From: a virus
Lineage: Duplodnaviria; Heunggongvirae; Uroviricota; Caudoviricetes
Virus record (IMG/VR): IMGVR_UViG_3300024270_000010
Direction: 5' to 3' (one strand)
DNA length: 64,000 nucleotides
The position numbers and the translations under genes were made by a program. The notes under the pieces are model-generated. The model saw nothing but the letters and a program-made list of their open reading frames with translations, ran no database searches and was not told the origin of the DNA. Positions 53,060 through 56,270 of this stretch are shown piece by piece (the first letter of the stretch is position 1; every line of letters starts with the position of its first letter).

Positions 53060-53240
53060 CTAAATAAGACTCTACCCTTATTTTTATTTTTGATTACGAG
53101 AGCGTTCATTATAAAATAAATTACTAACACCCAATCATCGGAAGAATTTTGCCAAGAGGCAAGGTTTATATACTTGATAAAATACTGCAAATATATAAAA
53201 CTCTCAAAGAGAGTTATAAATAAAGTCAATAACAAAACAG
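53060..53240 (-). ncRNA. DGR spacer-like conserved RNA block, copy B (paralogue of 56100..56270), 3' of TR-B
   Basis: About 170 nt nearly collinear with the block between TR-A and the RT (shared ...gagaacgttcattata...accaagaggyaaggtttat...ataaaactctcaaagagagttataaataaa...). Contains the small hairpin ctctcaaagagag. Confidence 0.5.
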
Positions 53241-53375
53241 TGGCCACCGATATTCGCATTCGCATTCGACGTGGAATTGTTCAAATTCAGATAGAAAGGA
53301 CCAGTATTCAGCCTGTTATTCCAATTACTACTGAAGTTCGTGACGTGAGACGAATTGCAATTCGTATCGTGGAAT
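53240..53375 (-). repeat. DGR template repeat TR-B (cognate to VR-B), with IMH* GGTGGCCACTG at its 3' end
   Basis: Aligns with VR-B over about 135 nt. Every mismatch falls at a TR adenine (T on the plus strand); examples are gat/gac and att/acg. The apparent Asn-rich ORF 53204..53410 is this non-coding copy. Confidence 0.75.
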
Positions 53376-53435
53376 AAATATTTTATCGTATAAGTAACCC
53401 ATATATTCAAAGAATTTTACTATTCTTTAAATTTT

Positions 53436-54629
53436 TTATAATTTTTGGATGCGGCCACCGACATTCGCACTCGCACTCGACGCGGAATCGTTCAAACGCA
53501 GAAAGAAAGGACCAGAAGCCAGCCCGTTAGCCCAATAACCACCGAAGCGCGCGACGCGAGACGAATTGCAACCCGCATAATCAGAGAAGTAAGTTGTACC
53601 ACTACCTCCTTTAGCCGTTATAACAAATCCGCCTTCACTAGTACCTAAACAATTGGTATAATATCCATAAGTATTACTAGTGAGTCCAGAAGCATTGGTA
53701 AATTCATAATTAGTGCCAGAATCATCAAAAGCTCCAGTAGTAGTTAAATAATTTCTAGAAGCATCAGTAACAATGCCATCACACCATTTAGAAATATTAC
53801 CCCAAAAATTTTCAATTCCCGCAAATTTCATACCTTCAGTATCCGTTCCACCATAATCCAATCCTTGATTATTCATTGTTCCAGTAATAATAGGAGCAGA
53901 ATTAGAACTATTAGTATAACCATATCCGAGAGCAGTTTGTCCATTCAAAGATTTATATTTTATAACATACATGGCCTATAAATAAACTAATTGATAGTAA
54001 GCAAACTACTCATAACCATCGCCATTTAGTTGGGCTGCCGCACGAAACTCACTAATAGTTTTAGAAGCCGTAGGGGTTTTATTACTTAAACTACGTAATT
54101 TACCATCACTATCAATATAGCCATCATAAGCACCAGTATAAAATGTATCTAAATCTTTATTATGCGTATGTGCGTAATAAGTAAAATCTGTATTAGCAAT
54201 ATCATTTGTAAAACTAACAGTAACTTTATTATCGTCGCTTTTAGTAATTCTTAATCCTCTTCTTGGAAAAGCAATCATTACATCTCCTGCACTTCCACTT
54301 TCAATATCTACTGGATTACCATTAATATCTTCAGCGTAATTATTAGGATTTAATTTTACAACTTCTACTCCATCTTTCATAAGAACGGGATAATGTCCGA
54401 AAAATTCATCCCAAGCAGAAGATTTTGCTTCCATGGTAAATGCGTCATCCTCATAAGAACAACAAGTGTCAGGATTAGAATCATTTAAATCAATAATAAC
54501 AGTCATTACTTTTACCGGCTCTTCATCTAGTTTTGTTCCAATTTCAATTAACGCATCTTCAATATGCTCCACATGAGAAGCACACCACTTATCAACAAAA
54601 TCATGTAAATTCATTCTTTCATAAGGCAT
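53436..54629 (-). CDS. DGR target protein B (paralogue of 56444..57670) with C-terminal variable region; 2 in-frame TAG (54006-54008, 53976-53978)
   Basis: The 207-aa and 178-aa ORFs are joined in frame: DGYE[TAG]FAYYQLVYL[TAG]AMYVIKYKSLNG aligns with the intact paralogue DTYEQFAWFQLIYLQAMFIMKYKSING, so both TAGs match CAA Gln. C-terminus RVARFGGYWANGLASGPFFLRLN...GGRIQKL carries the GG(C/Y)W-AGPF motif. Confidence 0.7.
53450..53585 (-). repeat. DGR variable repeat VR-B with IMH GGTGGCCGCATCC at the 3' end (inside target B)
   Basis: Differs from TR-B only at TR-adenine positions; GC-rich IMH at the gene terminus versus IMH* at the TR. Confidence 0.75.
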
Positions 54630-54651
54630 AAATTCACATCCTATTCTTACT

Positions 54652-54759
54652 TATTTAATATTTTATCAATTTCCTCTTGTAAATTTGGAAATCTCAAAAT
54701 TACTGCATCATAATCTAATTTTCCTTCTTTAATTCTCATAGCTAAGTATTCAGCCATAA
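54652..54759 (-). CDS. small protein (about 35 aa)
   Basis: ATG 54759 gives MAEYLAMRIKEGKLDYDAVILRFPNLQEEIDKILNK; not in the ORF track. Confidence 0.25.
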
Positions 54760-54761
54760 AA

Positions 54762-54992
54762 TTACACCCCCATAATAATAGCATCTAAAGCATTTTTCAT
54801 AATCTCATTTTCATCAGACATTTTCTTTAGATACTCGTCTTTGCTATATTGAATCTCTTCATATTCATAATAAACATGACCTTTTTCATCAACTTTTTCG
54901 ATAATATTATTATGAATATAAACAGTAGTTTTTCCAATCACTAAAGGTTTTGCCTGCTCGGCACTACCTCGCACGATACCCATATTTTTCAT
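54762..54992 (-). CDS. hypothetical protein (76 aa); overlaps the RT 3' end in another frame
   Basis: AGGAG RBS 8 nt upstream of the ATG. Confidence 0.4.
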   Translation of the reverse strand: MKNMGIVRGSAEQAKPLVIGKTTVYIHNNIIEKVDEKGHVYYEYEEIQYSKDEYLKKMSDENEIMKNALDAIIMGV

Positions 54993-56055
54993 ATCTTTGT
55001 ATCTCCTTTCCTTGAATAACGCATTTTTTATATATCTCCATAGAACGATAAAATGTTCTAAAATATTTATTAATAAAATTAGACATTGTTGTCTAATCTA
55101 TTATCCCTTTATAAGAGAAAAAAGCACAAAATTCGTGATAAGTTGGTAAAAATATTTCATCTCGATAATAAGAATTATATAACATTTTTATTATAAATTT
55201 TCTCACCTTTTTATAAGTTCGTTTACGCAAAATAATTCTATTATGAAAATGTCTATATCCTACAAAATCTATTCCCCTAATATCTACAGGAAAAATCTAA
55301 TAATTATCTTTTATTTCTAATTTTAATTCTTCTTGAAGATATTTTTTTATTTGATAAAAATATTTCCATAACTATTTTTTATTATTTCCTAAAATTACTA
55401 TATCATCCATATAACGAATAATATATTTAATTTTCAATTCTTCTTTACACCAATGATCAAAAAATGATAAATAATAATTTGATAAATATTGTGATAGATA
55501 AGAACCAATAGGTAAACCATTATTACAACTTTCAATAATTTTATCTAAAAGCAATAAAGTCTATTTATCTTTAATTTTTTTACGAATTAGTTTTTGTAAA
55601 ATAGTTTGATTAATATTTGGATAAAATTTTTTTATATCAATTTTCAAGCAATACTAAGTATTTTTAACATCTTTTAGATATTTTTTAGTAAGATTAGTTG
55701 CTCGTGTAATTCCGGCATTTTTTATAGAAGCACAACTATGATAACAAAAATGTTTTACTAAAGTTGGTTCTAACTATAACATAATGGCCCATTGAATAAT
55801 TCTATCTGGATAATAAGGAAGTTTCATAATTTCTCGCTCTTTTCCACTATCCTAAATTATTGAATGCTTATAGAGTGAAACCTAATATTCATTATTTAAT
55901 AATATTTGTTGAATCTATTTTAGATTATTATCTAAATCTTTTTCAACTTTTTTTACTGAACGATAATGAGATTTATCCTATTTAGCCATTTTGTGTGCTA
56001 ACCGCAAATTATCCATATTACATATTTTATCAAAAATATTATTTAGACGTTTCAT
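54910..56055 (-). CDS. DGR reverse transcriptase with about 11 in-frame TAG codons; the 3' end is uncertain (TAG at 54964-54966 or TAA at 54910-54912)
   Basis: AGAAGGA RBS then ATG 56055: MKRLNNIFDKICNMDNLRLAHKMAK (RT domain 0). Then I.DSGKEREI.KLPYYPDRIIQWAIM, KIDIKKFYPNI (domains 1-2), GLPIGSYLSQYLSNYYL (domain 4), IRYMDDIVILG (YxDD, domain 5), and thumb. The frame is continuous only if TAG is sense. Confidence 0.8.
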
Positions 56056-56099
56056 ATTAATTCCTTCTATAATTATTGTTATTTTTATAAGGTTTTAGT

Positions 56100-56270
56100 A
56101 AAAAATATTTTTACTAAAACCTTATTTTATTTTGACTGAGAGAACGTTCATTATAATAAAATAATTACTAATACCCATTATCAGAAGAATTTTACCAAGA
56201 GGTAAGGTTTATGTATTTAGAAAAATATTATATATAAAACTCTCAAAGAGAGTTATAAATAAAATAACAA
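56100..56270 (-). ncRNA. DGR spacer-like conserved RNA block, copy A, between TR-A and the RT
   Basis: Position and conservation with copy B (53060..53240). Lies immediately 3' of TR-A and 5' of the RT start, as for the Sp region of the Bordetella-phage DGR RNA. Confidence 0.5.

Follow-up and report, generated by a model that had tools for sequence, protein, structure and literature searches.

The question raised here is whether one reverse transcriptase (RT) can serve two template RNAs when only one of them has the RT gene beside it. The locus lies in a 64,000-nt stretch of phage DNA (Caudoviricetes; IMG/VR record IMGVR_UViG_3300024270_000010), referred to as the window throughout, and constitutes a diversity-generating retroelement (DGR), all features of which are encoded on the minus strand. 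It comprises two template repeats (TR-A and TR-B), each followed by a copy of the same spacer RNA, two variable repeats (VR-A and VR-B) in paralogous target genes, and a single RT gene. A sequence-only reading of the window had drawn attention to the second spacer copy and had proposed that one RT serves both TR RNAs in trans. This proposal is supported, though not proven, by our analysis, as the tests of RNA motif, base pairing, conservation, VR-B diversification and RT number all agreed. In our assessment, the phage probably carries a DGR with two complete RNA modules, one RT serving both templates, and two tail-protein paralogues.

Two TR/VR Pairs and One RT Gene

Target gene A (56444-57670; 408 aa) encodes a tail protein assigned to PHROG phrog_5302 (E 8e-49), and target gene B (53436-54629; 397 codons, two of them TAG) encodes its paralogue with 59% amino acid identity overall. 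The VRs occupy the last ~50 codons of these phrog_5302 proteins, for which no Pfam match was obtained. VR-A (56459-56594) was compared with TR-A (56275-56410) over 136 nt, and all 35 mismatches were located at TR adenines. For VR-B (53451-53578) and TR-B (53240-53367), the repeat without an adjoining RT gene, the comparison spanned 129 nt. Here, 25 of 26 mismatches coincided with TR adenines, the lone exception lying at the 5' edge, and VR-B equaled TR-B at every non-adenine position within the repeat. Each VR matched its own TR only; the other TR aligned poorly at non-adenine positions. Because the mismatches are confined to TR-B adenines, VR-B has evidently been rewritten from TR-B, recently enough for the repeat to hold not a single non-adenine difference. 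The sequence-only reading had named an undiversified VR-B as the outcome that would speak against it; instead, VR-B bears the adenine-only signature, and it does so relative to TR-B, not TR-A.

The adenine substitutions were strongly biased toward G, which accounts for 26 of 35 in VR-A and for 18 of 25 in VR-B and makes both VRs GC-rich islands in an AT-rich genome. A small inverted repeat is present just 3' of each VR and the stop codon, CTATAaaataaTATAG at ~56435-56450(-) after VR-A and AAAGAATagtaaaATTCTTT at 53409-53428(-) after VR-B, the latter inside a 27-nt insertion relative to A. In position, these repeats resemble the DNA hairpin/cruciform needed for target recognition in phage BPP-1 (PMC3240598).

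The RT gene (54910-56055; 381 codons) matched Pfam RVT_1 with an E value of 2.5e-19. Its product contains the sequence LPIGSYLSQ and thereby an IGxxxSQ motif; the motif [I/L/V]GxxxSQ is diagnostic of DGR-type RTs. The best homologues were RTs that adjoin TR/VR pairs. When the 64-kb window was searched with the RT by tblastn, nothing else scored better than E 0.18, in agreement with the earlier statement that the RT gene had not been duplicated along with the spacer.

Spacer RNA copy A (56122-56274) extends from the end of TR-A to the end of an A-rich tail, and copy B (53080-53239) has the same limits relative to TR-B. The two were aligned by blastn with 80.95% identity over 168 columns (E 1.4e-38), and the shared non-coding block measures ~155 nt. 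The small hairpin that had been reported as common to both copies, ctctcaaagagag (AACUCUCUUUGAGAGUU in minus sense), is indeed identical at 56238-56254 and 53199-53215; it forms a 7-bp stem-loop, here designated SL1. The recurrence of the block 3' of TR-A and TR-B is real, but it does not represent an isolated repeat. The spacer block forms the 3' end of a duplicated cassette of ~1545 nt that consists of target gene, VR, TR, spacer, and hairpin, begins at the target-gene start codon, and occupies 57670-~56087 and 54629-~53050. Within it, TR-A and TR-B are 74% identical.

The Spacers Match a Family of RNA Motifs Located between TR and RT

A scan of the window against Rfam at gathering thresholds (40.4 bits for RT-17, RF03020; 41.3 bits for RT-18, RF03021) yielded no match. 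A permissive scan of 3.6 kb placed RT-17 and RT-18 on the minus strand of both copies with E values between 3e-4 and 0.036. Copy B scored 35.1 bits with RT-17 and 29.7 bits with RT-18, and copy A scored 33.3 bits with RT-18 and 26.9 bits with RT-17; with a range of 26.9-35.1 bits, the copies differ from accepted family members in staying below gathering. The matched stretch corresponds to the 3' half of each spacer copy. RT-17 and RT-18 have been described near RT genes with no specific role proposed, and the sister motif RT-10 is the TR-to-RT spacer of BPP-1 (Weinberg et al. 2017, PMC5737381). RT-17 and RT-18 do not share an Rfam clan, yet they matched the same stretches and look like one family.

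Relatives were collected in three sets of 80 loci: IMG/VR loci fetched by RT protein, with RTs 38-52% identical to the query; loci fetched by motif pattern; and metagenome loci (JGI/ENA). In the fetched IMG/VR relatives, RT-17 was found above gathering directly 5' of the RT start. According to a first covariance model, composed of a 4-bp H1 and a 4-bp P2 helix, the motif abutted the RT in 76 of 80 IMG/VR, 79 of 80 motif-selected, and 68 of 80 metagenome loci, and it was located between TR and RT in ~220 related DGR loci. In the family alignment, 93% of the cells were paired, double changes were seen in seven of eight pairs, and both H1 and P2 covaried.

A second covariance model, R2, was built from 86 non-window sequences only and applied to the window with filters off. 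Exactly two matches were returned, at 53080-53166 (54.0 bits, E 5e-11) and 56122-56209 (50.2 bits, E 4e-10), whereas the third-best score in the window was only 13.5 bits. RT-distal copy B thus scored at least as well as RT-linked copy A. The consensus anatomy is present in both copies. It starts with hairpin H1 (CCUURCC-NCUU-GGYAAAA; 56192-56205 in A and 53149-53162 in B), which is followed by AAAA and a linker, and continues with the P2/P3 stem-loop (56140-56176 and 53098-53132), in which P2 holds a conserved U-U mismatch. UUAGUA and GAA, both conserved, are likewise found, as is the A-rich tail, which runs to 56122 and 53080, respectively. Copy A also resembles the family in residing directly upstream of the RT gene, 66 nt from its start codon with a hairpin inserted between. 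Copy B differs in that no RT adjoins it; the next gene is an unrelated ORF of 61 codons (52837-53022). The assumption that the TR-to-RT block is a structured DGR RNA is supported by the match of both copies to this TR-RT motif family and by the base pairing described below.

A Long-range Helix Encloses Each TR and Is Maintained by Compensatory Changes

The 23 nt just 5' of H1 (56206-56228 in A and 53163-53185 in B) pair with a 22-nt strand that starts with GGUU and lies 5' of the TR. In module A, this upstream strand, GGUUAAUUGUAUGGAAAAAUAU, is non-coding and located at 56413-56434, 2 nt 5' of TR-A. In module B, it reads GGUUACUUAUACGAUAAAAUAU and is located at 53378-53399, 10 nt 5' of TR-B. 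The resulting long-range helix consists of 19 bp in three segments and has the same register in both modules (19-20 bp in B). Between A and B, four pairs changed on both sides (G-C to A-U, U-A to C-G, G-C to A-U, and A-U to U-A), two further pairs differed by a wobble-compatible change, and not one was broken. Cognate duplexes had energies of -13.8 and -13.7 kcal/mol, as compared with -8.5 and -4.6 kcal/mol after the partners were swapped. Read along the minus strand, each module is composed of the upstream strand, the TR, SL1, the back-pairing strand that encloses the TR, H1 (5 bp with a UCUU loop) plus AAAA, the linker, the stem-loop with UUAGUA and GAA, and the A-rich tail.

For a count over the whole module, a hand-specified structure of 35 pairs (long-range helix, SL1, H1, and P2) was imposed on the two-sequence alignment. 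All 35 pairs were formed in both modules; six showed double changes, two showed one-sided wobble-compatible changes, and none was broken. The six double changes comprised the four in the long-range helix and one each in H1 and P2, both from A-U to G-C. In a control in which the partners were slid by 1-3 columns, 33-61% of the positions paired and double changes were absent. The covariance-aware alignment that had been suggested as a check on the sequence-only reading therefore speaks for a kept structure, in the two blocks as well as in their homologues.

The long-range helix recurs in the family. Of 64 non-redundant loci, ~55 have an AGGUU(G)N8-12 strand immediately 5' of the TR, 105-220 nt upstream, whose partner on the 5' edge of RT-17 is N8-12(G/A)ACC. 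From locus to locus, the inner sequences of the helix are unrelated. Because the AGGUU/GACC pairing recurs across family loci, the conserved "gaCC" with which the RT-17 model opens is one half of a TR-enclosing helix; this helix, formed with sequence 5' of the TR, is not part of the Rfam model. A test of cognate versus non-cognate duplex energies over the 64 loci was only moderately discriminating: the cognate partner came out best in 14 of 64, as strands resembling GGUCGUUC are shared by many loci.

Folding of the whole of module A gave the long-range helix a probability of ~1. Two other pairings were examined and discarded. A first long-range candidate joined the upstream strand with GUGUUAGUAAU, located in the 5' side of P2. 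It overlapped the family-supported P2 and contained one breaking change; this pairing remains the minimum free energy (MFE) alternative for module B. A primer duplex between the TR 3' end and the spacer, UAUCGG/CYGAUR, was suggested by RNAalifold, but it competes with the outer helix of the family and would bury TR adenines that are mutated in VR-A. No convincing candidate for a primer duplex or a priming nucleotide was found in either module.

RT-distal Modules in Other Lineages

A second, RT-distal module of TR plus spacer was detected in two other lineages, the first represented by IMGVR_UViG_3300000286_000005 (L050/L125) and its relative L131, and the second by 3300003154_001560 (L134). 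The modules of L050 are located at 1-360 and 5549-6004, the RT-distal one 5.6 kb upstream of the RT-linked one. In L050/L125, 21 of 22 mismatches of the RT-distal VR/TR pair and 18 of 19 of the RT-linked pair were at adenines. In L134, the RT-distal module comprises VR2 (2486-2579), TR2 (2692-2785), and its copy of the motif (2804-2910); 2.1 kb downstream of it follow VR1, TR1, and the motif (4576-4993) and then the RT. Counted by eye, 11 of 11 differences between TR2 and VR2 were at TR adenines. The paired modules of L050/L125, L131, and L134 carry different, individually complementary upstream and stop strands. These elements differ from that of the window in that the RT-distal module is upstream of the RT-linked one, whereas in the window it is downstream of the RT. 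L050 is TAG-recoded like the window; L134 is not and has a GC content of ~45%. The RTs of L050, L131, and L134 are only 45-48% identical to the window RT.

A second motif copy within 8 kb was found in none of the 80 metagenome loci. The nearest RT from a cultured phage, that of Psychrobacillus phage Perkons (MT325768), is 49% identical to the window RT. Perkons shares the order of VR, TR, the same RNA motif (51 bits with R2), and RT; unlike the window, it has a single TR/spacer module and no hairpin between motif and RT, and TAG recoding is not evident in its annotation. Because two other lineages have it while the 80 metagenome loci and Perkons do not, the two-module layout can be regarded as rare but recurrent.

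These loci bear on the possibility that module B depends on a second RT whose gene lies outside the window. The window is a fragment of a phage genome that has topoisomerase II subunits and looks large, and it could in principle leave such a gene uncovered. Against this stands the number of RTs in the two-module loci: L050/L125 and L134 show one RT within 12-15 kb. In addition, the motif abuts the RT in related loci, but module B adjoins the unrelated 61-codon gene, and the presumed RT-binding elements (H1, UUAGUA, GAA, and P2) are nearly identical in A and B, as a single shared enzyme predicts. A second RT is accordingly considered quite unlikely, and a single RT serving both modules is the reading followed here.

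DGRs with more than one TR-VR pair per RT have been reported before. The Zeta crAss-like phages Lera and ct1yV3 possess three pairs of TR and VR (PMC12386605), and Stenotrophomonas sp. SKA14 has two TRs (PMC6642488). The reports describe the repeats only and contain no analysis of spacer RNA. In Lera, TR2 and TR3 carry non-adenine substitutions and have been suggested to be inactive, whereas the two pairs of the window are clean. Lera also possesses Avd, in contrast to the window element, in which none was detected.

Comparison with the Bordetella Phage BPP-1 RNA

For cDNA synthesis, BPP-1 requires a 140-nt spacer and the 20 nt that precede the TR, both in cis (bioRxiv 10.1101/2023.10.23.563531). 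According to the same work, an Avd-binding stem-loop just 3' of the TR opens this spacer. Next comes the primer strand, paired with the 3' end of the TR, and then a strand that forms the cPRT stop with upstream RNA, to which a short hairpin with a tetraloop and A-minor adenosines are joined. The spacer ends with a single-stranded thumb ring and a long RT-binding stem-loop. Stop duplexes were predicted there in 207 other DGRs (bioRxiv 10.1101/2023.10.23.563531).

The window element resembles BPP-1 in having a non-coding RNA that directly follows the TR and precedes the RT and in the order of its elements, i.e. stem-loop, upstream-pairing strand, tetraloop hairpin with adenosines, single-stranded linker, and longer stem-loop with internal loops. 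In both, a long-range duplex encloses the TR, with its 5' strand abutting the TR 5' end. The differences are also clear. Sequence similarity is lacking, and RT-10 had no match in the window. The upstream strand is non-coding here but forms the 3' end of avd in BPP-1, the primer duplex and the priming adenosine were not located, and one module there contrasts with two here. No Avd-like match was obtained with Pfam or PHROGs among all ORFs between 51.8 and 61.2 kb, and the window element is in this respect also unlike that of BPP-1; Avd-less DGRs have been reported for crAss-like phages (PMC12386605). By analogy, the long-range helix together with H1 and AAAA resembles the cPRT stop of BPP-1 and may act as a stop, and the other RNA elements may have the roles of their positional counterparts.

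One could alternatively regard the block not as part of a template RNA but as a cis-regulatory leader of the gene that follows. The family motif always ends at the ribosome-binding site and start codon of the RT, both copies in the window precede a gene start, and SL1 together with a U-rich stretch scored as terminator-like. However, in each of three lineages (the window, L050, and L134), the gene that comes after the RT-distal copy is an unrelated one. Moreover, the motif always follows a TR, and its 5' end pairs with sequence 5' of the TR and so encloses the template. The equivalent RNA of the Bordetella phage is a cis-acting element of cDNA synthesis (bioRxiv 10.1101/2023.10.23.563531). We therefore regard a leader function as highly improbable and treat the block as the 3' part of a template RNA.

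An Old Duplication with a Conserved Spacer

Outside a converted patch, the target proteins are 58% identical, third codon positions are 61% identical, and fourfold sites agree at 28 of 57 (49%). The patch itself, 54244-54417 = 57294-57467, spans 174 nt that are 100% identical between the target paralogues, which indicates a recent gene conversion between the cassettes. As fourfold sites are only 49% and target proteins 58% identical, the duplication of the cassette is old. With the exception of the converted patch, the spacer, at 81% identity, is the best-conserved part of the cassette. The difference between 81% in the spacer and 49% at fourfold sites points to purifying selection on the spacer. 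The sequence-only reading had conceded that the shared block might merely belong to a larger, recent segmental duplication with no conserved structure. A larger duplication was found, but it is old, and the structure has been kept.

Several points weigh against the reading that one RT serves two modules. Both spacer copies are under the Rfam gathering thresholds. A shuffle control with two sequences saturates, its floor being ~1 in 64, and the slid control was partly favored by construction, as the long-range helix had been derived from the same two sequences. In the fold of the whole of module B, the long-range helix had a probability of 0.13 and an alternative was preferred. Past diversification of VR-B is read from one genome sequence, and gene conversion between the cassettes could have added to the similarity of the spacers. 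The window covers 64 kb of a probably larger genome, the rest of which could encode a second RT. Finally, Avd was not found, so that the elements of the Bordetella ribonucleoprotein are mapped by position only.

Some of these points would also fit the idea that module B is a decaying relic of a duplicated DGR or of a duplicated target-TR-spacer unit, no longer used and similar to module A through ancestry or gene conversion. The block lies inside a larger segmental duplication, conversion is visible in the 174-nt patch, the evidence comes from a single genome, and the MFE fold of module B lacks the long-range helix. The degree of conservation argues the other way, as the spacer retained 81% identity in a duplication of the age given above. 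So does its pattern: all 12 substitutions at the six doubly changed pairs of the helices compensate each other and leave every pair intact, and conversion would remove differences, not introduce ones that match across a helix. With R2, copy B even exceeded copy A (54.0 versus 50.2 bits), and the identity of VR-B and TR-B at all non-adenine positions of the repeat argues for recent homing. A relic is for these reasons considered unlikely, and two modules in use with one RT remains the favored interpretation. Binding of the RT to both RNAs and present-day activity are what we infer from it.

Hairpins Following the Spacers

The strong hairpin with a T-run that had been noticed after copy B was found at 53050-53093. 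It consists of a stem-loop, hairpin B (53050-53078), and a plus-strand T-run (53079-53093); hairpin B immediately follows spacer B, with 27 nt between it and the next gene. It is, however, not special to copy B. At the equivalent position, separating spacer A from the RT start codon, is hairpin A (56087-56125; 18 bp, AU-rich), which is likewise followed by a plus-strand T-run. The T-run itself is largely explained, since in each case it complements the A-rich tail at the 3' end of the RNA motif. Because neither hairpin is followed by a U-run on the RNA strand, the two are not canonical terminators of the DGR transcript. An ordinary minus-strand terminator with a U-run is present at 58193-58159. 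Hairpins A and B have their position in common but not their sequence, and they are absent from every other locus of the family, where the motif abuts the RT start.

TAG Recoding and Gene Neighborhood

The RT ORF contains 11 in-frame TAG codons. Seven homologues have an invariant Q where the RT has the TAG of residue 253, and both TAGs of target gene B align with Gln codons in paralogue A. On the basis of these correspondences, TAG is read as Gln and the RT ORF is intact. TAG serves as a sense codon in some of the genes, namely the RT (11), a 142-codon gene (5), target gene B (2), and a 1393-codon ORF at 47574-51755(-) (3); many other genes of the window have zero in-frame TAGs. As no tRNA gene was found in the window, synthesis of the RT would depend on a suppressor tRNA encoded elsewhere. 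Such a dependence could time the activity of the DGR.

The 142-codon gene (57677-58105) is the first of the locus in minus-strand order and is followed by target gene A. A 76-codon ORF (54762-54992) overlaps the 3' end of the RT gene; it matched phrog_18126, a family of unknown function (E 4e-11), and is not Avd-like. Approximately 1.8 kb upstream of target gene A, a protein of 153 aa (59467-59928(-)) contains the Pfam domain Mtd_N, the N-terminal domain of the major tropism determinant (E 7e-14); it has no VR of its own.

Among the products encoded elsewhere in the window are topoisomerase II subunits and an RNA-binding protein of phrog_850 (4804-7179(-), 8309-10204(-), and 62202-63713(-)). 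An exact search of IMG/VR with a 24-nt spacer core gave no match, none was found when 24 kb of the window were compared with GenBank phages by megablast, and RT-guided scans of IMG/VR and of JGI/ENA metagenomes yielded no RT of >52% identity. The presence of the topoisomerase II and phrog_850 genes, the lack of a nucleotide relative among GenBank phages, and nearest RTs of at most 52% identity together suggest that the phage represents a large, unsampled lineage.

Proposed Mechanism and Implications

A working scheme can be outlined as follows. The single RT would be made once TAG is read as Gln, and it would bind the 3' elements common to either RNA. It would then copy TR-A or TR-B into adenine-mutagenized cDNA and halt at the long-range helix of the module in question. 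As homology exists only between cognate TR and VR, each cDNA would replace the VR in its own paralogue of the tail protein. In the Bordetella system, purified RT-Avd reportedly copies RNA that was made separately.

That DGRs can have several TRs and that the spacer is needed in cis was already known, and in this sense the result is incremental. No description of duplicated spacers in multi-TR DGRs or of their covariation was found in the literature, our coverage of which is incomplete. The cis requirement seen in Bordetella predicts that every extra TR brings its own spacer. The window and two other lineages provide natural evidence for this prediction in a distant DGR clade without Avd. The paralogues within one genome amount to a small evolutionary experiment, in which six compensatory substitutions mark the helices that matter. 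The orphan Rfam motifs RT-17 and RT-18 also gain a context, namely as the 3' portion of a DGR RNA that, through its 5' end, forms a helix enclosing the TR.

More generally, we lean, by a small measure, toward the view that Avd-less template RNAs of the RT-17 type are self-contained, portable modules of upstream strand, TR, and spacer, each with a private TR-enclosing helix and shared RT-binding elements, that can be used in trans after duplication away from the RT gene, such that one enzyme runs several non-interfering programs. If this is true, nature has already built a multiplexed DGR, and the boundaries of its modules are defined to the nucleotide. A unit of ~390 nt (~370 nt in module B) should then suffice to equip a single-RT DGR with an independent second template, which is of relevance for the multiplexing of DGR-based directed evolution (bioRxiv 10.64898/2026.07.21.739853).

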